Below the pieces are notes generated by a model. The model saw nothing but the letters and a program-made list of their open reading frames with translations. It was not told the DNA's origin and made no database searches. Made by a program: the position numbers and the translations under genes. Of a stretch of DNA of 64,000 nucleotides, positions 13,607 through 47,483 are shown piece after piece; positions within the stretch are counted from its first letter, which is position 1; the number at the start of each line of letters is the position of its first letter. Source of the DNA: Candidatus Aminicenantia bacterium (GTDB taxonomy: Bacteria; Acidobacteriota; Aminicenantia; UBA2199); assembly GCA_965225955.1 (NCBI GenBank), contig CBDDBX010000009.1:68880-132879 (forward strand). Direction: 5' to 3'.

Positions 13607-13954
13607 ATGATTTCAAAAGCCCTTGCTGCAGCATCAACAAAACCGATGATTCTGGCAATATTAAAAGAGGAAGAGAGTTACGGTTATCAGATTGTTAAAA
13701 GAGTAAAGTCTGTTTCCGGCGGAGAACTGGAATGGGCTGAAGGTATGCTTTATCCAGTACTCCACAGAATGCAGAGGGAGGGGCTTGTTGAAACAGAATG
13801 GAAGATATCTGCTGAAGGAAGAAGAAGGAAATATTATAGAATAACAGAGGTCGGTATTGAAGAGCTTAATACTGAGATAGGTCAGTGGGGGAAAATAAAT
13901 TCAATATTTCAAACTCTGCTTGAACCAGTGGAAATGGGGGAGTGTAATGTTTAA
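13607..13954 (+). CDS. PadR-family transcriptional regulator (module 1)
   Basis: 115 aa. Winged-helix PadR motif 'YGYQI...GMLYPVLHRMQREGLVE'. Confidence 0.8.
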   Translation: MISKALAAASTKPMILAILKEEESYGYQIVKRVKSVSGGELEWAEGMLYPVLHRMQREGLVETEWKISAEGRRRKYYRITEVGIEELNTEIGQWGKINSIFQTLLEPVEMGECNV

Positions 13955-16523
13955 TCTGGAAAAAGAGATAAAAAAGTGGAGGCGCAATCTCTATAAATAC
14001 AGAGGTTTTGAAGATGGGCATGTTGAGGAGCTCACAGATCACCTTCGGGATCATGTTGAGGAGTCTGTTAAAACTGGTTTGAGTGAGGAGAAGGCATTCT
14101 CAAAAGCCTGTGCTGAAATGGGGACAGGTGAAGATATGAACCGGGATTTCAGAAGAGCCGGAATAAGTGGCGGACTGCTGGGAAACTATTTTCGTATAGC
14201 CTGGAGAAGCCTTGTAAATAATCGTATCTACTCAGTTATAAACATAGCCGGACTGGCTGTAGGTTTTATCTGCCTTATAATTATGGGGCTTCAGTTTCGC
14301 TGGGAATACAGCTATGACAAACATTTTAAACATTCAGGTCGCCTCTACAGAGTGTATGATAATCAGAAGAGAAACGGAGAAGTCTTTAGTGTAGCAACAG
14401 TTATGCTTCCATTAGGACCGGCTATTGAGAAAGAAGTTCCTGAAATTGAGAAAGCAGTAAGAATCAGTCACAACGGTGCTCTTTTTAAACTCGGAGACAA
14501 GAGATTTGTTGAGAGTATCTATTATGCAGATGATAAGTTTGTTGAAGTTATGGGGCTGGAGTTAGTAAAGGGAACTTCTGATTTCAGCTCTTCAGGTTCA
14601 ATAGTTTTATCTGAATCCTTTGCAAAGAAGTATTTTGGTAAAACTGATCCTCTGGGGAAGGTAATGTATATGAATATTAATACTCCCCTTGTAGTTAGTG
14701 GCGTTATCGGGGATACCCCTCTTAATTCCCATCTGAGTTTTAACATGCTTGTGTCTATGAAGGTATATGAGAAGGTTAAATATAATACTCTTACTAATTG
14801 GAACTCAACGCGGAATGACTATACATACGTTTTGCTTAAACCAGAAAGTTCTGTGGAAAATGTCGAAAGAAGTATAGCTGGAGTACTGAAAAAGAACCTC
14901 TCTGAAAATGGTAGGAAAAGTCACGATATGAAGCTTCAGAAACTCACTGATATACACTTTATGCCTCTTGGGCATGATCATTCAAGATCAGTGCCGGAGA
15001 AGTACATAAAGATTTTTGGGCTTGTGGGAATTCTTATAATGATTATTGCTTGTATAAACTATGTTAATCTTGCAACAGCACGCTCATCCGGCAGAGCCAG
15101 GGAGTCCGGTATGAGAAAGGTTCTGGGAGCAGGAAAAGGTCAGCTTATGAGGCAGTTCCTGACTGAATCCCTCTTTACTTCAGCCGGTGGATTTCTGCTG
15201 GCTGTTTTTATGCTGGGGGCTATTATACCTTTTCTGCAGAGGACTTTTGGTATGGCAATAAGCTTCAGCGGTATGTTTGAACCGGATTTTCTTCTGTACA
15301 TGATTCTTGTGGTTGCTGGGGTAGGTTTACTGTCGGGTTTCTATCCTGCTTTTATTATCTCATCTTTCTCACCGGTAAAGAATTTCAGAGAGAAGAAAAG
15401 TGGAGGAACAAGGTTGAGAGGTGTTCTGGTAACAGGGCAGTTCGCTGTATCCATTCTTCTTATTATTGCAAATATAATGGTTTACCGACAGGTGGATTTT
15501 ATGAAGAAAAGAGATCCGGGATTTGAATCAGATAACATTATGGTTGTACGCACCGGTAAAGATAATGTAGGAAGAAAAATTGATGCTTTCAGGGATACTC
15601 TCATGAGATCTCCCTATGCCTCAGGTGTTACTGTATCCAGCGGTACTCCGGGATCAGGTAGCAGTAGTACAAGTAACTATACACCGGAAGGCAGAGAGAA
15701 AGATGTCTATATGAGAGATATAAGAGTGGATTATGATTTTATGAAGATATATGGAATAAAACTGCTTTCCGGCAGGTGGTTTTCTAAAAAAATGGGGGAA
15801 GACAGAAGTTCTACCTGTATTATTAATGAAGCTGCAGCAAGGAAGATAGGATGGGAAAAACCTGAAGGGAAGTTTATAACTGCTGGTGGAGGAGGCGATA
15901 AGTTCAGGGTAATAGGAGTTATTAAGGACTTTCAGTATGGATCTGCCAGAAAACAGATCTGGCCTACTATATACACTATTGGAACAGGAAGCTTTGTAAC
16001 TGTCAGATTCAGAGAGAGTAATAAGAGTATTATTAAGGATGAAATAAAAAGAATATATCAGAGTTTTAATCCCGAATATCCTTTTTCAGGTTATCATGTG
16101 ACTGTAAGAATGGAACGGTTTTTAAGAATGGAAAACATTATCTTTAAGCTTCTGAATATATCTACTATTGTGGCGCTTCTTATCAGCTGCCTTGGAATAT
16201 ACGGGCTTATCTCATTTACTGTGGAGCAGAAGTCAAAAGAGATAGGAATAAGAAAGGTACTTGGAGCGCCTTCTCCAACAATCTTTATTCAGTTACTTAA
16301 AGGTTTTGGCTTCTGGGTTGTGCTGGCGAATCTGGTAGCTTTTCCTTCAGGCTATTTTCTAATTAACCAGTGGCTTGGAAATTATGCCTATAAAGTAGAT
16401 CTGCCATTATGGATTTTTCCTCTGTCCTCACTGTTTTCACTCATTATTGCAATTATGGCAGCAGGGTTAAAAGCCTGGGCTGCTGCCGGAGCAGATCCGG
16501 TAAAGAGCCTGAAGTATGAATGA
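13947..16523 (+). CDS. Orphan ABC-type permease with duplicated FtsX domains (MacB/ADOP-like) and an N-terminal cytoplasmic 'permease prefix' domain (module 1)
   Basis: About 860 aa. Two FtsX-like 4-TM blocks (about residues 370-490 and the C-terminus). No adjacent ATPase. The ATG at 13947 overlaps the PadR stop. Confidence 0.75.
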   Translation: MFNLEKEIKKWRRNLYKYRGFEDGHVEELTDHLRDHVEESVKTGLSEEKAFSKACAEMGTGEDMNRDFRRAGISGGLLGNYFRIAWRSLVNNRIYSVINIAGLAVGFICLIIMGLQFRWEYSYDKHFKHSGRLYRVYDNQKRNGEVFSVATVMLPLGPAIEKEVPEIEKAVRISHNGALFKLGDKRFVESIYYADDKFVEVMGLELVKGTSDFSSSGSIVLSESFAKKYFGKTDPLGKVMYMNINTPLVVSGVIGDTPLNSHLSFNMLVSMKVYEKVKYNTLTNWNSTRNDYTYVLLKPESSVENVERSIAGVLKKNLSENGRKSHDMKLQKLTDIHFMPLGHDHSRSVPEKYIKIFGLVGILIMIIACINYVNLATARSSGRARESGMRKVLGAGKGQLMRQFLTESLFTSAGGFLLAVFMLGAIIPFLQRTFGMAISFSGMFEPDFLLYMILVVAGVGLLSGFYPAFIISSFSPVKNFREKKSGGTRLRGVLVTGQFAVSILLIIANIMVYRQVDFMKKRDPGFESDNIMVVRTGKDNVGRKIDAFRDTLMRSPYASGVTVSSGTPGSGSSSTSNYTPEGREKDVYMRDIRVDYDFMKIYGIKLLSGRWFSKKMGEDRSSTCIINEAAARKIGWEKPEGKFITAGGGGDKFRVIGVIKDFQYGSARKQIWPTIYTIGTGSFVTVRFRESNKSIIKDEIKRIYQSFNPEYPFSGYHVTVRMERFLRMENIIFKLLNISTIVALLISCLGIYGLISFTVEQKSKEIGIRKVLGAPSPTIFIQLLKGFGFWVVLANLVAFPSGYFLINQWLGNYAYKVDLPLWIFPLSSLFSLIIAIMAAGLKAWAAAGADPVKSLKYE

Positions 16524-16561: not shown

Positions 16562-17443
16562 ATGTACAGAAAGTTTTTGAAAAGTGCCGGAGATAACAGA
16601 GAGTACAAATATTCAGTTCTGATTCCTACATGGAATAATCTGGATTATCTGAAACTATGTATTGAGAGTATTGAAAAAAACTCTCAATACAAACACCAGA
16701 TAATTATTCATATTAATGAAGGAACGGATGGTACAGTTGAGTGGGTTGAACAGAGTGGCTATGACTATGTACATAGTGATGAGAATATAGGTATCTGCTA
16801 TGCACTTAATCTGGCACGCTCTCTGGTAAGAACAGACTATATCCTGTATATGAATGACGATATGTACGTTTGCCCGGACTGGGATACAGAACTTGGCAGA
16901 GCCGTTGAGAAATCTGAAAGTAAGTTCTTCTTCTATTCATCTACAATGATTGAACCTGAAGATACAGGAAATAGCTGTGTTATTGTTGGGGATTATGGTT
17001 CCGGCCCGGGAGATTTCAGGGAAAAAGAGCTGCTTAAAGAGTTTTCAGGTTATAAAAAAGATAACTGGCTGGGAGCAACATGGCCTCCTAATATAGTGCA
17101 CAGGGATGTGTGGGATCTGGTAGGTGGTTACAGTACGGAATTTTCACCGGGAATGTACTCAGATCCTGATTTCACAATGAAGTTGTGGAATCTTGGAGTA
17201 AGGGATATCAGAGGTATTGCCTCTTCCAGAGTATACCATTTTGGTGGAAGATCTACTGGAAGACTTAAAAGAAAGAGTCAGGGTAAGAAGATCTTTTTAA
17301 ATAAATGGGGAATGACTCCCGGGAATTTTGTGAGATATATTATAAAAAGAGGAGAGACGGGGGACTCTGTGCTTAGTGAACCTGCAAAATGTATCAGAAG
17401 CAGATTCAGAGCTCTGGCAGATAGAATAAGAAGGTATTGCTGA
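16562..17443 (+). CDS. Family 2 glycosyltransferase
   Basis: YSVLIPTWNN N-terminus and a DDMYVCPDWD (DxD) motif. Confidence 0.7.
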   Translation: MYRKFLKSAGDNREYKYSVLIPTWNNLDYLKLCIESIEKNSQYKHQIIIHINEGTDGTVEWVEQSGYDYVHSDENIGICYALNLARSLVRTDYILYMNDDMYVCPDWDTELGRAVEKSESKFFFYSSTMIEPEDTGNSCVIVGDYGSGPGDFREKELLKEFSGYKKDNWLGATWPPNIVHRDVWDLVGGYSTEFSPGMYSDPDFTMKLWNLGVRDIRGIASSRVYHFGGRSTGRLKRKSQGKKIFLNKWGMTPGNFVRYIIKRGETGDSVLSEPAKCIRSRFRALADRIRRYC

Positions 17444-17509
17444 AGATTCATAATGCTGTTGACATAATGTTTTCTTTATGGGAAAATTAAAATTGGACGG
17501 TGTACGCTA

Positions 17510-18139
17510 ATGCCTCAGATAAAGAAAGATGAAATAAGAAATGCACTGCTTGAAACTGCTGCTTCAGAGTTTATGAGCAAAGGGTTCAAGGATGCTTCGA
17601 TAAGAAAAATCGGAGAAATTGCAGGAGTATCAAAGAGTAATCTGTATACATATTTCAGAAATAAGGATCACCTTTTTGAAGAACTGGTTAAGCCTGCAGT
17701 AATTGAGATAGAAGGCTGGTTCAAAGATATTGACCGACCTGAGAGGTTTGGGGAAGACACATGGGGACTGAATTACCATCTTGAACTAATAGAAGGACTT
17801 GCAGATTTTATAGATAGAAGAAGAATGGAATTGTATCTGATTGTATTCAAGTCTTTCGGTTCATCTTTTCAGAACTACTACAACAATTTCATTGGGCGTT
17901 GTACAGCTCTTAATATTAAAAACTTACCTTATTATGCTGAGAAGATGAATTTTAAGAACCGTAATGTATCAAAATTTTTTACTCATAATCTTGCAGCATC
18001 ATATGCAGGGTTTATTAAAGAACTACTGATGCATAATGTCCAGAGAAAGGAAATACTTATATACGGAAAAGAGTTTATGACTTACTCTTATTGCGGTAGC
18101 GCGTCACTTTATGGTTATGAAGAGTGGTTGGATAGATAA
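17510..18139 (+). CDS. TetR/AcrR-family transcriptional regulator
   Basis: N-terminal HTH 'FMSKGFKDASIRKIGEIAGVSKSNLYTYF'. Confidence 0.8.
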   Translation: MPQIKKDEIRNALLETAASEFMSKGFKDASIRKIGEIAGVSKSNLYTYFRNKDHLFEELVKPAVIEIEGWFKDIDRPERFGEDTWGLNYHLELIEGLADFIDRRRMELYLIVFKSFGSSFQNYYNNFIGRCTALNIKNLPYYAEKMNFKNRNVSKFFTHNLAASYAGFIKELLMHNVQRKEILIYGKEFMTYSYCGSASLYGYEEWLDR

Positions 18140-18188
18140 AAAATTTAAATAAAAAAAGGACGCTGTCCTTTTATTGAGGAGAGGATAG

Positions 18189-19208
18189 ATGAAAAAATTA
18201 CCTGAAGTCAGGGGGTCCTGGAAAAGCTTTTATGAGCTTACAACATATTCTGTCAAAAGCACAGTCTTTATGGCTTCACTGAAACTGAAGATATACGACT
18301 ATATGCAGAACTGGAGTACCCCTGAGGAGATTGCATGGGAAGCGGGTTGTAATAAACGTAATCTTGAGTTAATACTCAATGCTCTGGCAGGAATGGACAT
18401 AGTAATCAAATCAAATGGAAAGTTTGTAAACAGCCCAGAATCACAGGAATTTCTCGTTTCTGACAAAGATACATGGATTGGTGATTTTCTGCTCCACGTA
18501 TCAGCCTGGAACAACCTGACAGAAGAGGATTATGTTAAACTTGTAAAACAGGGCCCTCCTGCAGAGAGTCCCGATATCTCTGAAGCAGGCTTGTGGGCTA
18601 AGAGTGCAAAATTGTCTGCACCTTATCAATATACCGGAGCAGCCCAGAGAGTTGCAGGAATAATATCTTCTGTGTCTGATTTCAGAAATATGAAGAGAAT
18701 GATGGATCTTGGTGGTGGTTCCGGTTTCTACTCCATGGCGGTTGCTGAATTGCATCCGGAAATACAGGTTGTTGTATTTGATCAGCCTGAAGTTACAGAG
18801 GTGGCAAAGGAGTTTATATGCCAGTATGATATGGAGCACAGGGTTTCTGTACTTCCTGGGGATTACATGACTGATTCATTTCAGAATACATATGATCTGA
18901 TTCTTGCGAGTGCAACTCTCAATTTTGTCAAAAAAGATCTGAATGAAATAGTTCAGAAGATATACGATGCTCTGGAGCCTGGAGGATATTTTGTGAGTCA
19001 TGCAGATGGTCTTCTTAAAGAGAGAACCCATCCTGTTAATTTTATATCAGAGTTTCTGGTTGGAGAACTTATGGGCAATGATTTTGGTTTCCCTTCAGGT
19101 ATGATCGGTAATGCTATGGCGGAAACCGGGTTCATTCATATAAGAAGTTTCTTTGTGGATTCTGATTCAGGTGAAATGGAGATCACTATAGGAAGAAAAG
19201 GCAAGTAG
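18189..19208 (+). CDS. SAM-dependent O-methyltransferase (family 2-like), tandem copy 1
   Basis: SAM-binding motif 'DLGGGSGFYS'. N-terminal dimerisation-like domain. Close paralog of the downstream ORF. Confidence 0.7.
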   Translation: MKKLPEVRGSWKSFYELTTYSVKSTVFMASLKLKIYDYMQNWSTPEEIAWEAGCNKRNLELILNALAGMDIVIKSNGKFVNSPESQEFLVSDKDTWIGDFLLHVSAWNNLTEEDYVKLVKQGPPAESPDISEAGLWAKSAKLSAPYQYTGAAQRVAGIISSVSDFRNMKRMMDLGGGSGFYSMAVAELHPEIQVVVFDQPEVTEVAKEFICQYDMEHRVSVLPGDYMTDSFQNTYDLILASATLNFVKKDLNEIVQKIYDALEPGGYFVSHADGLLKERTHPVNFISEFLVGELMGNDFGFPSGMIGNAMAETGFIHIRSFFVDSDSGEMEITIGRKGK

Positions 19209-19256
19209 ATATAGAGATGAGGGTAATTGCCGTGTTTTGTTAAAGGAGGAGTTAAA

Positions 19257-20276
19257 ATGAAAAAAATGCCTGAAATTAAAGGATCATGGAAGAGATTTTA
19301 TGATCTTACAGGTTTTACAGTAAGAAGTACTCTGTTTAAGGCATCACTGGAATGGAAGATATATGATTATATGCAGAATAGAGTTTCAGCTTCAGACATT
19401 GCGTCAGATCTTGATTACAATAAACGTAATCTTGAGCTGGTTCTGAATGCACTTGCAGGTATGGGGATTATAGAAAAAAGTAACGGTCTTTTTATTAACA
19501 GCCCTGATGCACAGGAGTTTCTTGTATCAACGGGTAGTGCATATATAGGTGAATTTCTTCTCTATATATCCAAGTGGAATACACTGACTGAAGAAGATTA
19601 TGGAAATCTTGTTAAGAATGGCCCCCCGGAAGAGCAACCTGACATGTCTGATGAGGCGTTCTGGGCTAAAGGTGCTGAATTATCAGCAGCTTATCAATAT
19701 GCAGGTGACGCTCAGAAGGTGGCATCAATTATTGCGGGAATTCCTGAGTTTTCTTCAATAAAAACTATGCTTGATATGGGCGGAGGGCCTGGTTTCTATG
19801 CTATGGCCATGGTTAACAGGCACCCTGATATGAAAGCTGTGATCTTTGATCAGCCTGCTGTTACTGAAGTAGCAGCTGATTTTATAAAAAGCTATGAAAT
19901 GGAAGACAGAATCTCTGTAAGAGCTGGTAACTATATGGAGGATTCTCTTGGTGGGAAGTACGATCTTATATTTGCCAGTGCTACTTTGAATTTTTTTAAG
20001 GGCAGACTGGACGAAATTATAGAGAAAATATACGAGTCACTTGAACCCGGGGGGAGTTTTATAAGTTATTCTGATGGAATGACTAAAGAGAAAACACACC
20101 CTGTAGAGTTTGCAACAGGTTTTCTGGCTGCAGAACTAGGGGGTAATGATTTTAGTTTCCACTCTGGTCTGGTAGGAGATATTATGCTGGAGAAAGGCTT
20201 CAATAGAGTAAGAAGTTTCTTTGTAAATGCCACTACAGGTGAGATGGAGATAACTATAGGAAGAAAAGGTAAGTAG
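19257..20276 (+). CDS. SAM-dependent O-methyltransferase (family 2-like), tandem copy 2
   Basis: GGAGG RBS before MKKMPEIKGSWKRFY. 'DMGGGPGFYA' motif. About 60-65 % identical to copy 1 across the whole length, and the 30 bp after the stop codon are also conserved. Confidence 0.7.
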   Translation: MKKMPEIKGSWKRFYDLTGFTVRSTLFKASLEWKIYDYMQNRVSASDIASDLDYNKRNLELVLNALAGMGIIEKSNGLFINSPDAQEFLVSTGSAYIGEFLLYISKWNTLTEEDYGNLVKNGPPEEQPDMSDEAFWAKGAELSAAYQYAGDAQKVASIIAGIPEFSSIKTMLDMGGGPGFYAMAMVNRHPDMKAVIFDQPAVTEVAADFIKSYEMEDRISVRAGNYMEDSLGGKYDLIFASATLNFFKGRLDEIIEKIYESLEPGGSFISYSDGMTKEKTHPVEFATGFLAAELGGNDFSFHSGLVGDIMLEKGFNRVRSFFVNATTGEMEITIGRKGK

Positions 20277-20345
20277 ATATAGAAATAAGGGTAGTACCGT
20301 TTCGCTGGTGACACAAAGAACAGAGATTTTTACGTACTGACAATG

Positions 20346-20397
20346 ACAAACACAGGTGATTGCAGGATAAACTATTGTCGTGTACTCCTGTGTTTGT
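20346..20397. repeat. Perfect 11-bp inverted repeat (acaaacacagg ... cctgtgtttgt) with a 30-nt spacer
   Basis: Read directly from the sequence. Located in the OMT2-GT4 intergenic region. Confidence 0.6.
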
Positions 20398-22570: not shown

Positions 22571-22589
22571 ATCTATTTCTCCTGATTGA

Positions 22590-33812: not shown

Positions 33813-33844
33813 CATTTTTCTGTTTTTTTTTGTGGAACTATTTC

Positions 33845-33859
33845 TACTGAAAATCAGTA
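33845..33859 (+). promoter_or_regulatory. Perfect 6-3-6 palindrome TACTGA-aaa-TCAGTA; candidate operator of PadR-2
   Basis: 20 bp upstream of the PadR-2 start. Same 6-3-6 architecture as the module 1 palindrome but a different sequence. Confidence 0.4.
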
Positions 33860-33878: not shown

Positions 33879-34214
33879 ATGGTACAAGTACTTACACTTT
33901 CTGAATCGATAATACTACTGACTATTCATAAGTTACAGCAAGAGGCTTATGGAGTAAAAATCAGACGATCAATAGAAGAAAATACAGGAATAGAATACTC
34001 TTACGGAGCTCTCTACAGCTCTCTGGAGCAGCTTACCAGGAAAGGGTATGCTGATAAAAAGGACGGAGATCCTACACCTGAGCGCGGAGGTCGCAGGAAA
34101 TCCTTTTATACAGTTACTTCTGATGGCATAAAAGCTCTTGAAGCAGCCAGAGAGCTCAACAAAACAATCTGGAAAGATTTCTCATCTGTCAGAGCTGAAG
34201 GAGAGGAAGCATGA
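33879..34214 (+). CDS. PadR-family transcriptional regulator (module 2)
   Basis: 111 aa with a 'YGVKIRRSIEENTG...GALYSSLEQLTRKGY' motif. Confidence 0.8.
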   Translation: MVQVLTLSESIILLTIHKLQQEAYGVKIRRSIEENTGIEYSYGALYSSLEQLTRKGYADKKDGDPTPERGGRRKSFYTVTSDGIKALEAARELNKTIWKDFSSVRAEGEEA

Positions 34215-36769
34215 AGAACTTTTTTATTAAATTCCTTTCAAAAGAGAGCTTTGATGATCTTGCGGGAGATATTGCTGAAGAGTATAACCTTGTAAAAAAG
34301 GAGAGAGGAGCTGTACAGGGAATAGTGTGGCTTATGAAACAGCTTTTTACTACTTTAATTTCTCTTCTGAAATCAGAGGCAGGATGGCGATCAGGGCTTT
34401 TCAGGAGTTTTCTGAAATCAGCTTTCAGAACTCTTCTGAGACAGAAAGCATACTCTTTTGTAAATATAACAGGCCTTGCACTTGGTATATGTGCTGTTAT
34501 TCTGATTATGGTCTATATTGGCTATGAATACAGTTATGAAAATATTCATGAAAAGAGAGAGTCAATCTACAGAATATGTATAAAAACATATAAAGGTGAG
34601 AGGCATATGGGGGATTCAACTTACTATCCTCCTCCCCTTGGAGAAGAGATGACACGGGTTGCTCCTGAAGTGAAGGATTTTGCAACTATGAGTGGAGAGA
34701 AGAAGAGGCATGTGGTTGTTGGTAAGAGGGGATTCATGGTTGATGGGATCAGATATACAACTTCGGGTATTCTAAGAGTTTTCTCTTTTGGTCTCAAAAA
34801 TGGAGTTTATCCGGTTGATTTTGATAAACCCTTTAAGGTGATTCTAACCAGAAGCCTTGAAAAAAGATTGTTTGGAGATGAAACTTCTATTGGTAAATTA
34901 ATAGGTATAAATGGAACGGGTAACTATCAGGTTGTATCTGTAATAGATGACCCTCCCGGGAATTCTCACCTTAAATTTGAGATGCTGGTCTCCTTTTCAT
35001 CACTGGCAAAAGATAGAAACATCTATATACATAAGAATCCCGCCTCTTATCTTGGCTGGAATGGGGGACACCAGTATGTGTCTTACCTGCAGCTGCGAAA
35101 AGGTAGTTCTGCAGAAGCTGTTCAGAAGAGAGCACAGAGTATTGCAGATGATAAGGTAAACAGATCAAGTGGCCCCTGGTATATTAAACCTGTGCTGCAG
35201 AAACTTGGGGATATTCACCTTCATCATACATCGCCGGTGATTATGAGAAATATTAAGATATTCTCTCTGATTGCTGTTTTCATACTCCTGATAGCCTGTA
35301 TAAATTTTGTTAATATGAGTACTGTCGGTGCTGTTAAAAGAGCAAAAGAGATTGGTGTGAGAAAAGTAATGGGAGCAGAGCGGCAGGGACTTATTAAACA
35401 GTTTCTTACAGAATCTTCAGTTCTGAGTAGTGCTGGATTTGCCGGAGGATTTATACTGGCATCTCTTGTAGGAGGGAGATTTTTCAGTCTCCTGGGAAGA
35501 GAACTGGATTTCTGGGGAGCAGTGCAGGTGCAGTATTTTGTACCAGGCATTCTGCTGGCTCTTACTGTAGGAGTTCTGGCAGGGTTATATCCTGCGTTTT
35601 ATCTGTCTTCATGCAGTATAGATGGTAACTTTAAGAAAGGAGCCAGAAAGGGGAAGTTCTTCAGAAACGGGCTTGTGATACTTCAGTTTGCCATATCTAT
35701 CGTTTTGATTGCAGCCACAATACTTGTAAACGGACAGATAAAGTTTATGAAAAACAGAGATCTGGGGTTTCAGAAGGAAAATATGCTCTATCTTCCTTTG
35801 TCCAGCAGAAACGCAGCTGTGAAATCCCATATAATAAAGAAGAAGATAATGGAAATTCCTGGCATAAAAGCCGTTGGTGGAGTTTCACAGCTACCTGGTA
35901 AAGGTTTTACAATGAATGGCTACCGGCCTCAGGGAAAAGATGAGTTTATGATGATAAATGTTGTGGATGTAGACTCAGATTTCTTCAGACTTTTTGGGAT
36001 AACTGTTAAAGATGGAAGAGGATTTCTGCCTGATAATAGTGGGGACATGAACAGGTATGTTGTTAATGAAAAGTTTGCCGATGTAATGGGATGGAGCAGA
36101 GCCACGGGAAAGAGAGTGGAGAGAAACGGTATCCATGAAATTATCGGAGTTGTTAAGGATTTCAGTTTTGATAAAGGATATAAGGATATTGCTCCGCTTA
36201 TTATTACAGCCAGACCATGGGATGGTAAATTTAACTATCTTGTTTTTCGGACATCCGGGAATATAGATGGTGCTGAGTTACTTAACAGAGTTGAAGCGGT
36301 GTGGAGAGATACAGCTCCGCTTACTCCTTTTGAGCCTGGGTTTCTGGAAGATGATATCGATAATCTTTATAGAAGTGAGGAGCGCTTTGAAGGCCTCTTT
36401 TTCTGGTTTTCCTGTATTGCATTGGGGATAGCTTTACTGGGAGTAATAAGTCTGGCTTCCTATTCTGTAGAACAGAGGCTCAGGGAAATTGGTGTCAGGA
36501 AGGTTCTTGGAGCTTCCGGTATGTCAATATTCGGAATGTTTTCCCTGGAGTTTGTGATACTTATTACTGTAGGTAATGTTCTGGCCCTTCCAATTGTATG
36601 GTATTGGGGGAACCTGTGGCTTGAAAATTTTGTGCACAGAATATCAGTTACTCCGGATATTTTTCTTCTCTCCCTTTTTATAAGTGTATTTATGGGAGTT
36701 CTGGTAGTATCTTTTCAGATAATAAGAGGTGTAAATTCCAACCCTGTAGAAGTGTTGAAATGTGATTAA
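34211..36769 (+). CDS. Orphan duplicated-FtsX permease (ADOP/MacB-like) with an N-terminal prefix domain (module 2)
   Basis: 852 aa with two FtsX blocks. Start overlaps the PadR stop (ATGA). Confidence 0.75.
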   Translation: MKNFFIKFLSKESFDDLAGDIAEEYNLVKKERGAVQGIVWLMKQLFTTLISLLKSEAGWRSGLFRSFLKSAFRTLLRQKAYSFVNITGLALGICAVILIMVYIGYEYSYENIHEKRESIYRICIKTYKGERHMGDSTYYPPPLGEEMTRVAPEVKDFATMSGEKKRHVVVGKRGFMVDGIRYTTSGILRVFSFGLKNGVYPVDFDKPFKVILTRSLEKRLFGDETSIGKLIGINGTGNYQVVSVIDDPPGNSHLKFEMLVSFSSLAKDRNIYIHKNPASYLGWNGGHQYVSYLQLRKGSSAEAVQKRAQSIADDKVNRSSGPWYIKPVLQKLGDIHLHHTSPVIMRNIKIFSLIAVFILLIACINFVNMSTVGAVKRAKEIGVRKVMGAERQGLIKQFLTESSVLSSAGFAGGFILASLVGGRFFSLLGRELDFWGAVQVQYFVPGILLALTVGVLAGLYPAFYLSSCSIDGNFKKGARKGKFFRNGLVILQFAISIVLIAATILVNGQIKFMKNRDLGFQKENMLYLPLSSRNAAVKSHIIKKKIMEIPGIKAVGGVSQLPGKGFTMNGYRPQGKDEFMMINVVDVDSDFFRLFGITVKDGRGFLPDNSGDMNRYVVNEKFADVMGWSRATGKRVERNGIHEIIGVVKDFSFDKGYKDIAPLIITARPWDGKFNYLVFRTSGNIDGAELLNRVEAVWRDTAPLTPFEPGFLEDDIDNLYRSEERFEGLFFWFSCIALGIALLGVISLASYSVEQRLREIGVRKVLGASGMSIFGMFSLEFVILITVGNVLALPIVWYWGNLWLENFVHRISVTPDIFLLSLFISVFMGVLVVSFQIIRGVNSNPVEVLKCD

Positions 36770-40040: not shown

Positions 40041-41846
40041 CTATTTTTTTCTATCTTCTCCGGGAATAGTAACAGATACAATAAAAAGCAGTTCAGCCGT
40101 TACATATACAAAGAGAGGAATTGCTACTCCTGAAGTGAATCCGTATGAGTGCAGTCCTACTCCAAGAAGATTCACTCCGAACCAGGCCAGTGCAACCATT
40201 ACAGCTCCTGCAACTGAGCCTGCAGCAAAGCCTTTTTCTTTTATCATACCAGCTTTTTTTGCATGGAAGAGAATGGCTGAGAAAATGAGAACTGCCAGAG
40301 CTCCGTTTTCTTTTGGATCCCACCCCCAGAAGCGTCCCCAGCTCTGATCAGCCCATACACCTCCCAGTACTGTACCAGTAAATGTAAATATAAGGCCAAA
40401 CACCTGGGTTGAAAAAACAGCTTTAAAAAGGTTGCTGTCTTTTATTCCTCTCAGATTCTTAACCAGCCAGACATGGGCTGTAAAACCAGATAATATGATG
40501 CCTGCATATCCCAGAATTATGGTTATTACATGAGCTGCCAGCCAGAAGTTTGAATCAAGAACTGCAACAAGAACCCCCATAGTATCTCCATCAAGAGAGT
40601 ATCGTCCGGCAATAAGCATCATTATAAGAGCCGTAACATTTCCCCCAATGAGAGAGGTGGTGTTGTTAAGTCTGAAATAGAGAAAGCCTCCCAGTACAAC
40701 TGTAATAAGGCCTGTGAATATAAAGGTCTCATACAGATTTGTTACCGGAGGTCGTCCTGTTATTGTATATCTGATTGCTACTCCCCACAAGTGGAGAAGA
40801 AAACCACCTGATGTAAGTATCATCCCAGCTGTAAAAAGAGGTTTTTTGTTTCTGAAAAGAGAAGAGAGAAGGAGCAGGAGGGCAGCTATCCCATAAAAAA
40901 ACTGAGCTTTGTAAAACGGATCAACAGAGTTATATAGAACTTCATTCCTTATTGTACTGCTGTCAGTTTGTATAATTGAATCTGTACTATCAATGAATTT
41001 AGTTACAATTCTGTTGAAATTATCTCCGTTACGGTATGCCAGAACAATCTGTTCCAGCTGCTTTATCAGTGGGGGAGCCCCGTTGCCGGTATTGTGCTCT
41101 GCAAGATAAGTCCATGGGGATTTCCAGTCTCCTGAAGCAGAAGGAATGAAGGGGGGAGTTGTAGCACCGTAAAACTCCGGGAAGCTTTTGAGTATTGCCA
41201 GAAGGCGTGATGCCTCTCTCAGTTCCCTGCTATCTTCTGGAGATTCATTGATAAAATTTTCAAGTATCTTCTGAGTCTTTCTGAATTGAAGATATGAGTG
41301 GACGCCGGATCTGGCTCCTGTAATTTTCTGTAATTCCGGTGACTCTATTTTCAGATGGGGAGATGGAATTGCAAACATCATGCAGTTTCTGAGATCTTTG
41401 TAGATAAGGAGCCTGTTGTAGAGAAGTATTATGTCTCTTTCAAGAAGTGAGCGGGATGCTTCACTTTTTGAAGAGATCTGCCTTACAAGCCTGTCTATAT
41501 TTCCTGCACCATGGATCAGCTGGTTATAACTGTATCTGTCCCTGCCTTTTCCGGTTCCTTTTATCCCTATTGCTCCGGGAATATCAGGATTTGAAATAAG
41601 AAAGACTCTGTGATGGGCAGCTTTTTCCGGTTTAAACATTGTTTCCGCCAGCCATCTGGCTGCACTCATCTTCTCATATTTACTCTTCCCGGATAGTTGT
41701 CTCAGAATGTTTATCGCATAAGTATCAAGAGGCAGAGGTCGGCCTTTAAGAATTACCGGTATCTTTCGGAACTCTTCTATATCTGGTGCTGCATCTACTG
41801 GTAGTGTGCAGATAAGTAATAGTATAACCGGTATAATTCTAATCAT
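40041..41846 (-). CDS. ccsA: System II cytochrome c biogenesis protein CcsA (ResC), with a roughly 300-aa N-terminal extracytoplasmic extension
   Basis: WWD heme-handling motif 'WGRFWGWDPKENGA', multiple TM helices, and a signal-like N-terminus. Overlaps the ccsB stop. Confidence 0.75.
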   Translation of the reverse strand: MIRIIPVILLLICTLPVDAAPDIEEFRKIPVILKGRPLPLDTYAINILRQLSGKSKYEKMSAARWLAETMFKPEKAAHHRVFLISNPDIPGAIGIKGTGKGRDRYSYNQLIHGAGNIDRLVRQISSKSEASRSLLERDIILLYNRLLIYKDLRNCMMFAIPSPHLKIESPELQKITGARSGVHSYLQFRKTQKILENFINESPEDSRELREASRLLAILKSFPEFYGATTPPFIPSASGDWKSPWTYLAEHNTGNGAPPLIKQLEQIVLAYRNGDNFNRIVTKFIDSTDSIIQTDSSTIRNEVLYNSVDPFYKAQFFYGIAALLLLLSSLFRNKKPLFTAGMILTSGGFLLHLWGVAIRYTITGRPPVTNLYETFIFTGLITVVLGGFLYFRLNNTTSLIGGNVTALIMMLIAGRYSLDGDTMGVLVAVLDSNFWLAAHVITIILGYAGIILSGFTAHVWLVKNLRGIKDSNLFKAVFSTQVFGLIFTFTGTVLGGVWADQSWGRFWGWDPKENGALAVLIFSAILFHAKKAGMIKEKGFAAGSVAGAVMVALAWFGVNLLGVGLHSYGFTSGVAIPLFVYVTAELLFIVSVTIPGEDRKK

Positions 41847-42921
41847 TTTTTCTCCTGCGAAGCAGAGACTTCAATATAAAGTGAAGTGCCATACCCACAA
41901 AAATTATTGCGCTTGATATATATGGAATAAGCCGTCCTCTGTTCTTTACAACAGCTATTATTGAGTACTCTTCTCCATCACGGTTTTTGAAAAAAGATGA
42001 TTGGTAAAGAGTGTAATCTTTGAAACGCAGAGGTTTGTTCATAGATATTTCTGCATCAAAGGTGTTGCCTTCAGGAGTGGAAACTTTAACTTTGCTTATG
42101 TAACTTCTGGGAATGTTTGAGTTGGGGTGAAACCCGGTAACGAAATCTTTCAGAAATACTTTAACCGGAAGAATTGCTACTTTTCTGCGGAGACTTAAAA
42201 AGCAGGTTCCGGTTCCGGTGTTAATAGTTGCCGGAGATCTGTCTTCTCCCCACAAAGTTATCAGGTGATCTTTTTTATCTGATGATTCTACAGATACGGT
42301 TGCTCCCGGAACTGCTGAAGAATGATCTTCAATAAGCTTTCTGTCTGTGCTCCCCATTTCTTTGATACTCACACTGTTTCTGATTAATTTACGTGGAACT
42401 ATTCTCATATTAAGGTCTTTTAGTTGCAGAGGTTTACCTTCTGAGAGAGCTCCGTAGTCTACTGCCCGAGTAGTTAAGCCATCTTTCTCTTCTGTCTGTA
42501 CTGCAAGTTCCCATTTATGGAGATGAAATACTTTTGAAGAGGCGGTTCCTTCTTTTATATTGAGTCTTGTATGTTCTGAATTAACAAAACTTATAAATGA
42601 ACCTGTAAGCAGTACGGCTATTCCTGCATGGGTAATCAGGTTGCCGGAATTTTTTATAGAAAAGTCCATTCTGAATATTACAGAAAGAATTAAATTTATA
42701 AAAAGTACCAGAGATATGGTGAGAACCCCGGGAAATGGCAGAAACCCGAAAATAGTAAAGAACCATGAGTGAAAAAACTTAGCCTGTGAAGCGTAGAGCC
42801 CGTTACCTGCCTGAAAAAGTGTTCCCCAGAATACAACAACAAGAAGAAATATAAGTCCCCAGGTAGTTAGTTTCAGTGAACCTCCTTTTTTAAGAAGTTC
42901 AACTATTTTTTCTCTATTCAT
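41839..42921 (-). CDS. ccsB: System II cytochrome c biogenesis protein CcsB (ResB-like)
   Basis: 360 aa. N-terminal TM helices, a periplasmic domain and a C-terminal TM helix. Immediately upstream of ccsA. Confidence 0.65.
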   Translation of the reverse strand: MNREKIVELLKKGGSLKLTTWGLIFLLVVVFWGTLFQAGNGLYASQAKFFHSWFFTIFGFLPFPGVLTISLVLFINLILSVIFRMDFSIKNSGNLITHAGIAVLLTGSFISFVNSEHTRLNIKEGTASSKVFHLHKWELAVQTEEKDGLTTRAVDYGALSEGKPLQLKDLNMRIVPRKLIRNSVSIKEMGSTDRKLIEDHSSAVPGATVSVESSDKKDHLITLWGEDRSPATINTGTGTCFLSLRRKVAILPVKVFLKDFVTGFHPNSNIPRSYISKVKVSTPEGNTFDAEISMNKPLRFKDYTLYQSSFFKNRDGEEYSIIAVVKNRGRLIPYISSAIIFVGMALHFILKSLLRRRKND

Positions 42922-44446: not shown

Positions 44447-44577
44447 TGATTTCTCCGCTTCTGATTATGACACTATTTTTTTCCATTTTCTATTTAATTT
44501 ATTTTTTTATGGAACTATTTAAACTTAAAAGTCGTTAATATATTTTCACGAAAAAGTAGTTAATACAGGAGGCGCTT

Positions 44578-44913
44578 GTGAAAATACTCACAATAAATGA
44601 AGAGATTCTTCTTATGGGAATCTGGAAACTAGGGGAAAATGCTTACGGTGTAAAAATTATGGAGTTCTATTCAGATGCTACGGGCCGGGAAGTAAGTTTT
44701 GGCACCCTTTATAATAATCTTGATCAGCTTGTTAAGAAAGAGTATGTTGTTTCGGTTAAAGGTGAACCAACTGCTGTAAGAGGTGGAAAGAGGAAAGTCT
44801 ATTATACAATCACTGAAATAGGCCGGGAGGCTCTGGGAAGAGCCAGAGAGCTTCATCGGAAAATCTGGGAAGGTGTAGCAGAAACAAACTTCATAGCTGG
44901 AGATTCTGAATGA
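44578..44913 (+). CDS. PadR-family transcriptional regulator (module 3)
   Basis: GTG start with an AGGAGG RBS. 'YGVKIMEF...GTLYNNLDQLVKKEY' motif. Confidence 0.8.
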   Translation: MKILTINEEILLMGIWKLGENAYGVKIMEFYSDATGREVSFGTLYNNLDQLVKKEYVVSVKGEPTAVRGGKRKVYYTITEIGREALGRARELHRKIWEGVAETNFIAGDSE

Positions 44914-47483
44914 ATCAGAAAAATTCACCTCCTTCATCAGCTAAATGGCTTGTATCAAGATTAAGTGAGTATGAGAACAGATACTCTCTCGAAGGGGATA
45001 TGGCTGAAGTGTGGGAAAGTAAGTGTAAAAATCGTGGAAGACTCAGAGCCAATCACTGGTATATAAAAGAGACTGTTAAAAGCAGTTTTTCATATATGAA
45101 ATTTATATCCGGCAGGAACTGCTCTCTTATATTGAATAGTTTTAAACCTGTACTGAGAAATATTGTAAAATTCAAAGGTTACTCACTTATTAATATTCTT
45201 GGACTGGCGATAGCTGTTACTGTTGCTCTGATGATAGCTTTCTTCATCAGAGGTGAAATGCAGATGGACAGTTTTCAGAAAAAAGGTGACAGGATTTACA
45301 GACTTGAAGCCGGTAACTGGGCCATTCTGGGAGCTCCTCACGGAAAGATTGTTAAAGAGAAATTTGCCGAAGTTGAAGAGTATGTTACTTTTAATAACAT
45401 CTCATATACAGGAATGTATGTTAAGAAAAAGGACAATACCAATGTCTCTCTGAAACGAACTATGATGGCTACAGAGGCTTTTTTCAGAATTTTTAATGTG
45501 GATTTCATCCATGCCGTCCCAGAAGGTGCTCTGAAAGCTCCTTTTACGATAGTTCTTAATAGAAGTGAAGCAATGAAGATCTTTGGTACAGTTGATGTGG
45601 TGGGCCGGAACCTGGTTGTAAATAAGGTATATACATTTAAAGTCGTTGGTGTTATGGAGGATATGAAGAATGTTCACTTCAGAGTGGGGTCAGTCATGTC
45701 GTTTATAACTCTTAGCAAAATTATTGATGATAAAAGGTTTATGACCCGTCTCGGTTCCTGGAATCACGGTACTTTTCTCCTGTTAAAACCGGGAGTTAAT
45801 TTACGAAACCTGGAAAAGAAGATTACCGCTCATTTTAGTGATCTCTATTTCAGCAGACATAATGAAAAAAGTGATGCTGTATTCTCTCTGAGAAATTACA
45901 GAAACATCTATTTCTGCAAAGATAAGTTTCATGAGTACAGTATGAAGCGGGGTAGTAGTGGTTTTCTGATGATTCTTGGAGGGATAGCAGTTTTTATAAT
46001 TTTAATTGCATGTATGAACTATATAAATATATCGACTGCAATAGCTGGTTTACGGGCAAAAGAGATCGGTTTGAGGAAAACAGTAGGCGGAAGTCGGGGA
46101 AATCTTATAATGCAGTTTATGATGGAAACAGCTGTAATATGTTCAACAGGATTTGTTATTGCATCAGGATTGTTATGGTCTATTATGCCGGGGTTCAGTA
46201 AATTTCTTAACAGTGAGATGAGTTTTACTCTCTTTGATCCATGGGTTATTGGAATAATGGGAGGTGTCTGGTTAACAGTTACAATTATGGCAGGACTTTA
46301 TCCTGCACTATATCTGACATCCTTTAAACCTGCAGAAGTACTGAAAGGAAGAAGTAGTAACAGACAGAAGGGAAGTTTAAGAAAAATACTTGTAGTTTTT
46401 CAGTTCGCAGTATCAGTTGGACTCTCTATTGCAACACTGATCATTTTTGATCAGATTAACTATATGAGAAATGCGGAAACCGGTTTTACTAAAGATCAGG
46501 TGATAAATTTTGCTTTGAGGGGTGATTTGAGAAAAAAGAAAGATATGGTTAAAGAGGAGCTGTTAAAGATGCCTGATATAAAAGGTGTTGCATACTCAAA
46601 TACAATTCCCGGCAGAATAAGATGGACTGAAACATTTAAAGCAGAGGGCAGATTCTGTAGTGCAAGTTTTAATCCTGTTGATGAGGACTACCTTAAAGTT
46701 ATGGATTTAAAGCTCCTTGAAGGACGCAACCTTATAAAGAGTGACTGTAGCTCAGAATCAGAAGGCTTTCTCTGTAATGAAACAGCTGTTAAAGCTCTTG
46801 ATCTTAAAAAACCCTGGGCTGGTAAGAGAGTTGATAACGGCTATGCAAAAAATGCAAGAATAGTGGGAGTTGTTAAAGATTTTCATATAGACTCTCTCCA
46901 TACAAAAATCAAGCCACTGTTTATGTCTATAAGAAATCATGGGTTGTCCTGCGCAAACGTAAGGGTTAGCGGAAAGAATGTTCCAGAAGTACTGAGTCAT
47001 ATTGAGAAACTATGGAAAAGATATGCCCCTGATTATCCATTCAGGTATGTTTTTCTAAATGAGTCCTTTGATAGTCAATACAGAAAAGAGGAAAAAATGG
47101 GTAATATGGTCGGTTATTTTGCTCTTATAGCTCTCTTTATTGCCGGAGCAGGGCTCACAGGTTTATCTTCATTTACAGCAAGACAGAAGAGAAAAGAGGT
47201 TAGTTTAAGGAAAGTTCTGGGAGCTTCAGTGCCGAAAGTTGTTCTGCTACTATCTGCTGATTTCATGAAATGGGTACTTCTGGCTAATATCATTGCATGG
47301 CCTCTTGCATGGAGCGGTATGAATACCTGGCTCAGCAATTTTGCATACAGAACAGACATTGACATTACTCTTTTTATCCTCTCAGGTTCAGTTGCATTTA
47401 TAACAGCTTTTATAACTATATGTTTTCATTCAGTTAAAGCTGCTACAGAGAATCCTGCAGAGGTTTTGAGGTGTGATATCTGA
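44910..47483 (+). CDS. Orphan duplicated-FtsX permease (ADOP/MacB-like) with an N-terminal prefix domain (module 3)
   Basis: 857 aa with two FtsX blocks. Start overlaps the PadR stop. Confidence 0.75.
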   Translation: MNQKNSPPSSAKWLVSRLSEYENRYSLEGDMAEVWESKCKNRGRLRANHWYIKETVKSSFSYMKFISGRNCSLILNSFKPVLRNIVKFKGYSLINILGLAIAVTVALMIAFFIRGEMQMDSFQKKGDRIYRLEAGNWAILGAPHGKIVKEKFAEVEEYVTFNNISYTGMYVKKKDNTNVSLKRTMMATEAFFRIFNVDFIHAVPEGALKAPFTIVLNRSEAMKIFGTVDVVGRNLVVNKVYTFKVVGVMEDMKNVHFRVGSVMSFITLSKIIDDKRFMTRLGSWNHGTFLLLKPGVNLRNLEKKITAHFSDLYFSRHNEKSDAVFSLRNYRNIYFCKDKFHEYSMKRGSSGFLMILGGIAVFIILIACMNYINISTAIAGLRAKEIGLRKTVGGSRGNLIMQFMMETAVICSTGFVIASGLLWSIMPGFSKFLNSEMSFTLFDPWVIGIMGGVWLTVTIMAGLYPALYLTSFKPAEVLKGRSSNRQKGSLRKILVVFQFAVSVGLSIATLIIFDQINYMRNAETGFTKDQVINFALRGDLRKKKDMVKEELLKMPDIKGVAYSNTIPGRIRWTETFKAEGRFCSASFNPVDEDYLKVMDLKLLEGRNLIKSDCSSESEGFLCNETAVKALDLKKPWAGKRVDNGYAKNARIVGVVKDFHIDSLHTKIKPLFMSIRNHGLSCANVRVSGKNVPEVLSHIEKLWKRYAPDYPFRYVFLNESFDSQYRKEEKMGNMVGYFALIALFIAGAGLTGLSSFTARQKRKEVSLRKVLGASVPKVVLLLSADFMKWVLLANIIAWPLAWSGMNTWLSNFAYRTDIDITLFILSGSVAFITAFITICFHSVKAATENPAEVLRCDI

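Follow-up and report, generated by a model that had tools for sequence, protein, structure and literature searches.

Three PadR-linked double MacB/FtsX-type permeases in a Candidatus Aminicenantia bacterium and the putative role of their N-terminal prefix domains

How might a membrane permease work that is preceded by a PadR regulator gene and accompanied by no ATPase gene, and what is the extra domain at its N terminus for? The question is raised by a 64-kb stretch of DNA from a Candidatus Aminicenantia bacterium (hereafter the window; 39% G+C), which contains three old, diverged copies of a unit made of a PadR gene and an orphan double MacB/FtsX-type permease gene. In soil and sediment bacteria, ADOP-like permeases make up one of the largest paralogous families of membrane proteins without an assigned function, and this has been so since they were named. 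The arrangement has already been catalogued, and the window adds further members, not a new kind of system. Comparison with related loci nevertheless sharpens the picture: the prefix is tied to PadR, two types of the pair remain unmixed, the motif at the ATPase-docking position is kept, and solitary ATPase genes occasionally adjoin the units.

Three diverged bicistrons

The modules span positions 13607-16523, 33879-36769 and 44578-47483, each with a PadR gene and a gene for a permease of ~855 residues. All features described below are on the plus strand unless stated otherwise. PadR1 (13607..13954) has 115 residues and is of type A. PadR2 (33879..34214) and PadR3 (44578..44913, with a GTG start) have 111 residues each and are of type B. 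The three proteins score 88.7, 42.8 and 46.5 bits, respectively, against PF03551, all above its gathering threshold of 27 bits. PadR2 and PadR3 are 47% identical, and PadR1 is ~30% identical to either. The genes of Perm2 (34211..36769; 852 residues) and Perm3 (44910..47483; 857 residues) begin within an ATGA stop/start overlap at 34211-34214 and 44910-44913. Perm1 (13947..16523; 858 residues) most likely starts at ATG 13947, eight nucleotides of overlap with the PadR1 stop (ATGTTTAA), and the TTG at 13920 given by the ORF lister is probably not a start. The ATG is preferred because it overlaps the PadR1 stop and yields the 858-residue protein recorded by public gene callers, to which Perm1 is identical (public protein P0001). 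Apart from this corrected start, the coordinates, the PadR-permease architecture and the overlapping stops and starts of the original prediction were all recovered.

In each permease, two protomers of the MacB/FtsX (type VII ABC) fold form a fused pseudo-dimer, which has two periplasmic domains. Pfam places both MacB_PCD (PF12704) and FtsX (PF02687) at two sites in every one of the three. The hydropathy order is a prefix of ~85 residues, TM1, a loop of ~240 residues, TM2-4, TM5, a loop of ~220 residues and TM6-8, giving eight transmembrane segments. BLASTP aligns the N-terminal half with the C-terminal one (E 3e-6 to 4e-5), so that the duplication proposed for the FtsX-like blocks holds. In pairwise comparison the permeases share 29-31% identity (E 1e-101 to 1e-113), as expected of the old paralogues they had been taken for. 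They share with MacB, LolCDE and FtsEX, the type VII ABC systems of mechanotransmission, the 4-TM FtsX fold, the large periplasmic domain between TM1 and TM2, and a cytoplasmic R-x-K-E-I-G-x-R-K-x-L-G-A loop between TM2 and TM3. Unlike in these systems, however, two protomers are fused into one chain, and the window holds no fused or adjacent ATPase, adaptor or TolC-like partner.

The ADOP permeases (TIGR03434) with their padR_acidobact regulators (TIGR03433) are the closest catalogued counterpart. Both have two MacB_PCD/FtsX repeats in one chain of ~800-900 residues, with a short PadR gene immediately in front, and both occur as several paralogues with no ATPase gene alongside. The ADOP family definition includes an acidobacterial lineage. 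A profile search returned TIGR03434 as the best NCBIfam match of all three permeases and TIGR03433 as that of all three PadRs, but the scores are far below the curated cut-offs: 293.2, 275.1 and 265.1 bits for Perm1-3 against 622.3, and 90.1, 29.3 and 25.2 bits for PadR1-3 against 101.8. The nearest named relatives come from Ignavibacteria, Melioribacter, Aminicenantes and Bacteroidota. In view of the sub-cut-off scores, these relatives and the G+C content, the modules are ADOP-like and probably not members of the acidobacterial subfamily; the kinship asserted in the original prediction is real, whereas the identification itself went too far for all six proteins.

The closest relative of Perm1 (locus L001) is 62% identical to it. 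The fused architecture is shared by prefixless duplicated MacB-type permease arrays of Bacteroidota and Ignavibacteria, which are close relatives as well (31-36% identity); the window permeases also score 94-153 bits against the profile of DarB-type permeases (NF038008). Many of these arrays likewise have no ATPase gene in their chain, and in some of them one or two genes for MacB-type ATPases come first. They differ from the window modules in having neither a prefix nor a PadR gene.

Prefix domains and their PadR genes

The prefix of Perm1 (residues 1-75; 13947..14171) is predicted to be cytoplasmic and helical. It scores 38.7 bits against NF038403, above the cut-off of 30, and so belongs to perm_prefix_1. 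Its AF2 model (mean pLDDT 73) has helices at residues 4-16, 23-42, 47-58 and 61-72, and W11, D35, A50 and F51 are invariant in the alignment of prefix-1 sequences (A2). The last two helices are separated by a break at G59, a position occupied by Gly in 23 of the 27 prefix-1 relatives.

The three prefixes had been described as unrelated in sequence. This is true of the Perm1 prefix, which is of type 1, but not of the other two, which are 26% identical over 66 residues (E 1.6e-6) and constitute type 2. Eighteen prefix-2 sequences out of 19, Perm3 among them, are matched by the profile NF038404 with E <= 1 (best 1.4e-8); the divergent prefix of Perm2 is the only one of the 19 without a match. The perm_prefix_2 cut-off of 35 bits is reached neither by Perm3 (19.9 bits) nor by Perm2, which is assigned to type 2 only by its similarity to Perm3. 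The AF2 model of the Perm2 prefix is a helical hairpin (residues 11-32 and 34-56; pLDDT up to 94), a topology that is tentative because the second helix is hydrophobic in some relatives. A relation between the two types was considered and discarded: hhalign gives a probability of 0.2%, and prefixes 1 and 2 are therefore treated as different domains.

The association between prefix and regulator was counted in 82 sources (81 loci and the window), the whole comparison comprising ~90 related loci. Thirteen of the 22 prefix-bearing permeases are directly preceded by a PadR gene, a number that rises to 16 when tandem chains of permeases are traced back; none of the 242 prefixless permeases is so preceded. 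Further loci have one PadR gene followed by one to five genes for prefix-bearing permeases. The PadR subtype matches the prefix type in all 13 pairs and in all seven further loci. The PadRs ahead of prefix-1 proteins in L082, L085, L087, L089 and L091 share 48-62% identity with PadR1; for the first three of these loci the identity is 56-62%, although that of the permeases is only ~34-38%. It is the prefix, rather than the body of the permease, that is tied to PadR, and the two prefix/PadR types do not mix.

Prefix 1 also occurs without a permease. Behind the type-A PadR gene of L089 (Pedosphaera parvula) and that of L091 come two to four genes, each of which starts with prefix 1 (E 1e-22 to 1e-24) and continues into a small multi-TM tail or a soluble Clp_N domain. 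Prefix 1 is thus a separable module tied to PadR. Prefix 2 was not found outside permeases, a protein search having given 11 short matches, mostly on short contigs.

A similar coupling has been described as the dyad formed by HAAS and a PadR-like wHTH, proposed as an alternative to two-component signalling, and fusions of FtsX-like TM segments with MacB/PCD are named as one form of it (Ravi et al., mSystems 2024; PMC11237479). The HAAS domain has three helices, the third kinked at a conserved GxP motif (PMC11237479). The window modules resemble the dyad. In both, a PadR gene is paired with a multi-TM protein that carries a helical domain at its N terminus; the standalone PadR gene overlaps the prefix gene in all three modules, and the linkage is kept across loci. 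The helix break at G59 in the model of prefix 1 might correspond to the GxP kink, but Pro is found two residues further on in only ~4 of the 27 relatives. The modular domain that travels with a PadR gene is represented by prefix 1, as L089 and L091 demonstrate, while prefix 2 was found on permeases only. With the HAAS superfamily taken as PF22564, DUF1700, DUF1129 and DUF1048, the likeness in sequence is slight: PF22564 matches four of the 27 prefix-1 relatives weakly (best E 0.014) and does not match Perm1, and for prefix 2 no relation to either prefix 1 or HAAS could be detected. Comparison of prefix 1 with PDB profiles and by Foldseek gave nothing significant (top match 2apl, E 1.8). HAAS membership of prefix 1 is therefore weak by sequence. 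The description of these systems as functionally uncharacterised overlooked the published signalling hypothesis (PMC11237479); no published demonstration of physical contact between PadR and a prefix was found in the literature.

The reading that we favour, while giving it slightly less than an even chance, is that each module is an autoregulated PadR/prefix signalling pair, a HAAS-PadR dyad, mounted on a MacB-type permease whose ATPases are encoded elsewhere. A PadR dimer would repress the bicistron that encodes it by way of a palindrome overlapping the promoter or lying downstream of it. The cytoplasmic prefix, which occupies the place of MacB's fused N-terminal ATPase domain, would be the dedicated partner of the co-translated PadR, as their co-occurrence and co-variation suggest, and would hold or release it according to the conformational state of the permease. 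In this way the envelope load on the permease would adjust expression. The three modules would then be separate channels, one of type A with prefix 1 and two of type B with prefix 2, each with its own operator. The signalling part of this reading is drawn from the linkage of PadR to the prefix, the match of subtypes, the separability of prefix 1, the stop/start overlaps, which point to translational coupling, the palindromes upstream of the modules, and the inclusion of FtsX/MacB-PCD fusions among the published forms of the dyad.

The clearest of these palindromes belongs to module 1. A promoter-like site found by a consensus scan (13535..13563; TTGACT, 17 nucleotides, TATTTT) would serve this module, and its TTGAC and TATTTTTAAT blocks are conserved in L001. 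Just downstream of the -10 element is the candidate PadR1 operator (13577..13592), GTCTA-TGTATG-TAGAC, which is unique in the window even if three mismatches are allowed. Its counterpart in L001 is CTCTA-GGTATA-TAGAG, where the outermost pair has changed from G..C to C..G and complementarity is kept, a compensatory change. The candidate PadR2 operator (33845..33859), TACTGA-AAA-TCAGTA, lies 20 nucleotides before the PadR2 start. Its core, CTRA-AAA-TYAG, recurs in L016 and L057, again upstream of a type-B PadR gene; the pattern, defined post hoc from these three sites, has five matches in 1.48 Mb of loci, of which three are upstream of PadR. Module 3 holds only a degenerate version. The other window matches to the module-2 palindrome carry two or three mismatches, and those placed on the ORF map (best at 56600) are inside ORFs. 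A wider PadR regulon in the window was discarded on these grounds, there being no second module-1 palindrome either. Modules 2 and 3 are also preceded by an 11-mer, TGGAACTATTT, whose only two exact copies in the window are at 33833..33843 and 44510..44520; it may be a promoter element, of which the ECF type was considered, or an operator.

A candidate palindrome for each module would equally be expected of an ordinary repressor/efflux pair, in which PadR senses a toxic ligand in the cytoplasm and derepresses a MacB-type exporter, the prefix being merely a structural or assembly element. LmrR controls the LmrCD ABC exporter, and PadR controls padC, by direct ligand sensing, and the short PadR form of ~110 residues (LmrR, LadR) binds drugs directly and controls transporters. 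The window PadRs are of this short form, and the Trp of the C-terminal helix is kept in 12 of the 13 aligned paired PadRs, that of L006 being the exception. We nevertheless hold this explanation to be unlikely, as it does not account for the restriction of PadR to prefix-bearing permeases, for the PadR subtype following the prefix type at 20 of 20 loci, or for the occurrence of prefix 1 on unrelated C-terminal modules, the soluble Clp_N protein among them.

The coupling-helix region and the probable source of the ATPase

The original prediction that no ABC ATPase gene adjoins the modules is borne out over the whole window, where a six-frame search for Walker A and the LSGGQ signature found none. 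Pfam detected neither an ABC ATPase nor a HlyD-type adaptor in 46 window ORFs (~40 neighbouring and the six module proteins), and none of the 22 prefix-bearing permeases has an ATPase gene within 500 bp. This absence is not special to the prefix/PadR modules. Among prefixless relatives whose same-strand gene chains are complete, 73% have no ATPase gene either; this implies sharing of ATPases throughout the clade.

The site at which an ATPase would dock has been retained. In Perm1 the cytoplasmic TM2-TM3 loop of the N-terminal half (15081..15134; residues 379-396, RSSGRARESGMRKVLGAG) is at the position of the ATPase-docking (coupling) helix of MacB, and R383, E386, G388, R390, K391 and G394 are invariant in the permease alignment (A1). 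The equivalent loop of the C-terminal half (16218..16271; residues 758-775) contains KEIGIRKVLGA, and E765, R769, V771, L772 and G773 are invariant there. Conservation of the coupling-helix regions is 0.75/0.76 in 81 prefix-bearing permeases compared to 0.68/0.74 in 22 ATPase-adjacent ones, with the same consensus, and periplasmic control regions score 0.34-0.43 by the same measure. A structural role might, however, also explain why the motif is conserved. Two loci, L057 and L070, have a solitary gene for an ATPase of 229 and 228 residues, respectively; it precedes the PadR gene by 545 bp in the former and 340 bp in the latter and has the same orientation, and its product is 65-77% identical to ATPases that flank prefixless permeases in other genomes. 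Judged from its sequence, the permease is probably not independent of ATPases. The conserved coupling-helix regions, together with the solitary genes of L057 and L070, suggest that it most probably relies on MacB/LolD-type ATPases whose genes lie elsewhere in the genome, the motif at the docking position having been kept in both halves.

The same evidence makes it quite improbable that the permease is purely a receptor, that is, a protein which has lost its coupling to an ATPase and only senses a periplasmic ligand or stress for PadR, performing neither transport nor mechanical work. The lack of ATPase genes in the 64 kb and around the 22 prefix-bearing permeases would follow naturally from such a role, as would the replacement of MacB's N-terminal ATPase domain by a regulator-linked prefix. 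Against it stand the motif at the ATPase-docking position, which shows no variation in either half and matches that of ATPase-linked relatives in its degree of conservation, and the ATPase genes upstream of PadR in L057 and L070; a missing ATPase gene is usual among the prefixless relatives too.

The signalling pair corresponds to the published HAAS-PadR scheme and would operate much as flux sensing does in BceAB-BceRS. In this Firmicutes system the output passes through a histidine kinase and a response regulator, and the gene of the BceA ATPase adjoins that of BceB. The proposed likeness is that an FtsX-type permease doubles as the sensor for its own expression; the differences are that PadR stands in for the kinase and regulator and that no ATPase gene is adjacent. 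A broader version of the idea, which we put forward tentatively and think doubtful, is that prefix and PadR form a general partner switch from membrane to DNA, which signals how an ATP-driven machine of the MacB type is working. PadR would be held at the membrane by the prefix and freed when substrate loads the permease, powered by shared ATPases from elsewhere. At least two unrelated prefix folds would each have evolved to match their own PadR clade, and the window would accommodate three independent channels of this kinase-free equivalent of Bce-type sensing side by side. If correct, the switch would be a compact means of coupling envelope transport load to transcription.

Neighbouring genes

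An M6 peptidase gene with a PKD domain is situated upstream of module 1 and a C25-like peptidase gene upstream of module 2, from which a link to secreted peptidases had been proposed. The link is not conserved, and a partnership with peptidases was rejected for this reason. FtsEX-type proteins activate periplasmic hydrolases, and these two genes, together with a tricorn/S41 protease gene that adjoins the array in L082, could in principle indicate that the periplasmic domains bind and switch on an adjacent M6 or C25-like protease; this is very improbable, since the upstream gene in L001 is unrelated to the M6 peptidase, a Pfam scan of the adjoining ORFs found no peptidase next to module 3, the neighbours differ among L084 to L088 and other loci, and a G+C-rich hairpin (13451-13468) separates the M6 gene from PadR1. 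The scan classed this hairpin as terminator-like for the minus strand alone, since it lacks a following T-run on the plus strand.

A conserved third gene was also sought and discarded: the 421-residue ORF after module 3 is unrelated to the 443-residue ORF after the module of L086, and no credible small ORF follows module 2. Immediately 3' of Perm3 is a terminator-like hairpin (47498..47517), which suggests that module 3 is a self-contained bicistron.

Genes, proteins and family placement

Each module lies on the plus strand and consists of a small ORF followed by a large one. Module 1 occupies positions 13607-16523, module 2 33879-36769 and module 3 44578-47483. The small ORFs code for 111-115 residues and the large ones for 852-867. 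All three small proteins match PadR (PF03551) in Pfam, and in each of the three large proteins both MacB_PCD (PF12704) and FtsX (PF02687) are found twice, so that ORF map and domain content agree with the original prediction of three PadR plus duplicated-permease modules. Hydropathy gives the order of the permease as prefix, TM1, a loop of ~240 residues, TM2-4, TM5, a loop of ~220 residues and TM6-8. In each permease, the N-terminal half aligns with the C-terminal one (E 3e-6 to 4e-5), which bears out the proposed homology of the two FtsX-like blocks. The expected overlap of PadR stop and permease start is ATGA in modules 2 and 3. The most likely start of Perm1 is the ATG at 13947. The overlap with the PadR1 stop is then 8 nucleotides, and the product, of 858 residues, is identical to a protein in public collections.

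The permeases are clearly diverged, as had been proposed, with pairwise identities of 29-31%. Identity is 47% between PadR2 and PadR3 and about 30% between PadR1 and either of them. The prefixes had all been considered unrelated, but this is not the case: those of Perm2 and Perm3 align with each other (E 1.6e-6) and group with 'permease prefix domain 2'. NF038404 was matched at E <= 1 by 18 of the 19 prefix-2 sequences scanned, Perm3 included. The Perm1 prefix scores 38.7 bits with NF038403 ('permease prefix domain 1'), for which the cut-off is 30. The suggested kinship with the ADOP permeases (TIGR03434) and padR_acidobact (TIGR03433) holds insofar as these models are the best matches for the window proteins, yet the scores are far below the cut-offs. 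The nearest named relatives are from Ignavibacteria, Melioribacter, Aminicenantes and Bacteroidota, the window has a G+C content of 39%, and the lineage of the modules is outside that used to build the family models. The original classification was broadly right, and the three modules are diverged further members of a catalogued ADOP-like permease and PadR architecture. This architecture is already known from the NCBIfam prefix-domain models and, in the literature, from a dyad termed 'HAAS-PadR-like wHTH', which its authors set beside two-component systems as an alternative (Ravi et al., mSystems 2024, PMC11237479).

HAAS fusions to FtsX-like transmembrane and MacB/PCD domains have been described, with an example from Acidobacterium capsulatum (PMC11237479). 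At the sequence level, prefix 1 is a weak candidate for a HAAS domain. PF22564 matches four of 27 prefix-1 relatives, weakly (best E 0.014), and Perm1 is not among them. A profile search found no PDB relatives of prefix 1, and Foldseek gave no significant match. AF2 models prefix 1 (pLDDT 73) with helices at residues 4-16, 23-42, 47-58 and 61-72 and a break between the last two at the conserved G59; this resembles the published description of HAAS as three helices, the third being kinked. The model of prefix 2 is a long helical hairpin, for which no structural or profile relative was found.

Prefix domains and their linked PadR genes

By their N-terminus, homologs of Perm1 can be divided into three classes: those with prefix 1, those with prefix 2, and prefixless proteins of about 800 residues. 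Our own ORF calls and HMMs were used to survey 81 related loci and the window. A PadR gene is directly upstream of 13 of the 22 prefix-bearing permeases found there, and of 16 if tandem permease chains are traced back, but of none of the 242 prefixless permeases. The two PadR clades follow the prefix type without exception, in all 13 pairs and in seven of seven further loci. In Pfam-annotated contexts, too, a single PadR gene precedes between one and five prefix-bearing permeases: L082, an Ignavibacteria contig, has five, L085 three, L087 two, and L084 and L086 have one each. The PadR proteins of L082, L085 and L087 share 56-62% identity with PadR1, their permeases only about 34-38% with Perm1. 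Three to five tandem prefix-bearing permeases stand behind one PadR gene in two Cytophagales loci (L048 and L060) and in L082, and a single regulator may therefore serve several prefixes.

When the prefix-1 alignment was used as a search profile, short standalone proteins were found as well. In Pedosphaera parvula (L089, 2656-5432) and in a second locus (L091, 4039-5423) two to four genes stand behind a type-A PadR gene, and all of them start with prefix 1 (E 1e-22 to 1e-24). C-terminal to the prefix, one of them has a soluble Clp_N domain and the others have small multi-TM tails of 140-210 residues. This makes prefix 1 a separable module linked to PadR. A protein search, which gave 11 short hits, found no prefix 2 outside permeases.

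The reading that we favor, with some reserve, is a switch between PadR and prefix that reports on a MacB-type permease. The prefix would be the switching partner of PadR, the output of the pair would report on the permease, and the permease would be powered by ATPases encoded elsewhere in the genome. A plain ligand-sensing repressor coupled to an efflux permease is a distinctly less probable arrangement. A tryptophan in the C-terminal helix of PadR (W94 in PadR1 and its equivalents in PadR2 and PadR3) is kept in 12 of 13 permease-paired PadR proteins, being absent in locus L006. Its position presumably corresponds to the drug-stacking Trp96 of LmrR. Trp11 is invariant in prefix 1 and a WYW motif is conserved in prefix 2; the PadR and prefix tryptophans may be in contact.

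Predicted coupling loops and the missing ATPase

As predicted, no ABC ATPase gene accompanies the modules: a six-frame search for Walker A and ABC signature motifs found none in the 64 kb. In 46 window ORFs, comprising the six module proteins and about 40 neighbors, Pfam detected no ATPase and no membrane-fusion adaptor. That the permeases are ATPase-free receptors is nevertheless unlikely, somewhat more so than the repressor and efflux arrangement. The cytoplasmic loop after TM2, which we take to be the helix that docks the ATPase in the established MacB and LolCDE structures, has the consensus RAKEVGIRKVVGA in one half and TKEIGIRKVLGA in the other, with six and five invariant positions, respectively, across the permease alignment. 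Conservation of the two loops is 0.75 and 0.76 in 81 prefix-bearing permeases, compared to 0.68 and 0.74 in 22 prefixless permeases located no more than 500 bp from an ATPase gene; periplasmic control segments have values of 0.28-0.43 across the three groups compared. The loop is thus as conserved in prefix-bearing permeases as in prefixless ones near an ATPase.

Two loci have a solitary ATPase gene upstream of PadR on the same strand, coding for 229 residues at a distance of 545 bp in L057 and for 228 residues at 340 bp in L070. No second duplicated permease was found for about 6 kb in either direction, although L057 has a prefixless one at its far end on the opposite strand. Both ATPases share 65-77% identity with the ones that, in other phyla, head arrays of prefixless permeases. 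Among prefixless permeases in complete same-strand chains, 88 of 121 are in a chain that contains no ATPase gene, an absence that is general in the permease clade. Most simply, a few ATPases would be common to many permeases, and 'orphan' would then describe gene order, not mechanism. The results on co-variation, modularity and the coupling helix make an old open question experimentally specific.

Two different MacB-type ATPase genes stand in tandem before arrays of prefixless permeases in L012 (8598-9974) and L034 (1104-2520). The subtypes, of 229 and 220 residues, are about 55% identical to each other and 65-77% identical across phyla; L017 has both, but separated by about 11 kb. The tandem arrangement is suggestive of a heterodimeric ATPase pair for a fused, asymmetric permease.

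Predicted regulatory sites and gene neighborhood

Module 1 is preceded by a promoter-like site, TTGACT-17-TATTTT, and, 3' of it, a palindrome at 13577-13592 (GTCTA-TGTATG-TAGAC) that occurs once in the window; in L001, the closest relative, its outer pair is altered in a compensatory manner. The palindrome of module 2 is at 33845-33859 (TACTGA-AAA-TCAGTA). Its core is also found 5' of type-B PadR genes in L016 and L057 and has just two further matches in 1.48 Mb, the pattern having been chosen post hoc. An exact TGGAACTATTT is upstream of both module 2 and module 3, and a terminator-like hairpin is 3' of Perm3. The predicted sites fit self-contained, autoregulated bicistrons.

The permease of L001 is 62% identical to Perm1, and its downstream GT2 and TetR genes are syntenic with those behind module 1. 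The gene upstream of the L001 module is unrelated to the M6 peptidase, and gene neighbors differ in other related loci. Peptidase neighbors thus vary between loci, and the claimed tie of the modules to a secreted peptidase was not upheld; an FtsEX-like activator of a neighboring peptidase is for the same reason very improbable. In the window, a hairpin separates the M6 peptidase gene from PadR1. An M3 peptidase (PF01432) is distributed over two minus-strand ORFs about 130 nucleotides apart, at 50319-51230 (profile positions 149-456) and 51358-52518 (positions 1-100), probably owing to a frameshift, a pseudogene or an assembly error.

A small cluster for a GT2 glycosyltransferase, a TetR regulator, two tandem O-methyltransferase paralogs and a GT4 glycosyltransferase follows module 1 at 16562-21608 on the plus strand. 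At 55645-59766, also on the plus strand, the gene of an ECF sigma factor is succeeded by two ORFs that match nothing in Pfam and by one for a large TPR protein. The first of the two ORFs includes the palindrome TACAGAAAATCTGTA (56600-56614), which has two mismatches to that of module 2, a likeness that is probably due to chance. A multihaem cytochrome c, CcsA/ResB cytochrome c biogenesis proteins and a signaling protein with HAMP and HD domains are encoded between the modules, at 29863-31167 (plus strand) and 38179-42921 (minus strand). Cytochrome bd oxidase, rubrerythrin and peroxiredoxin genes are located at 22121-26565.
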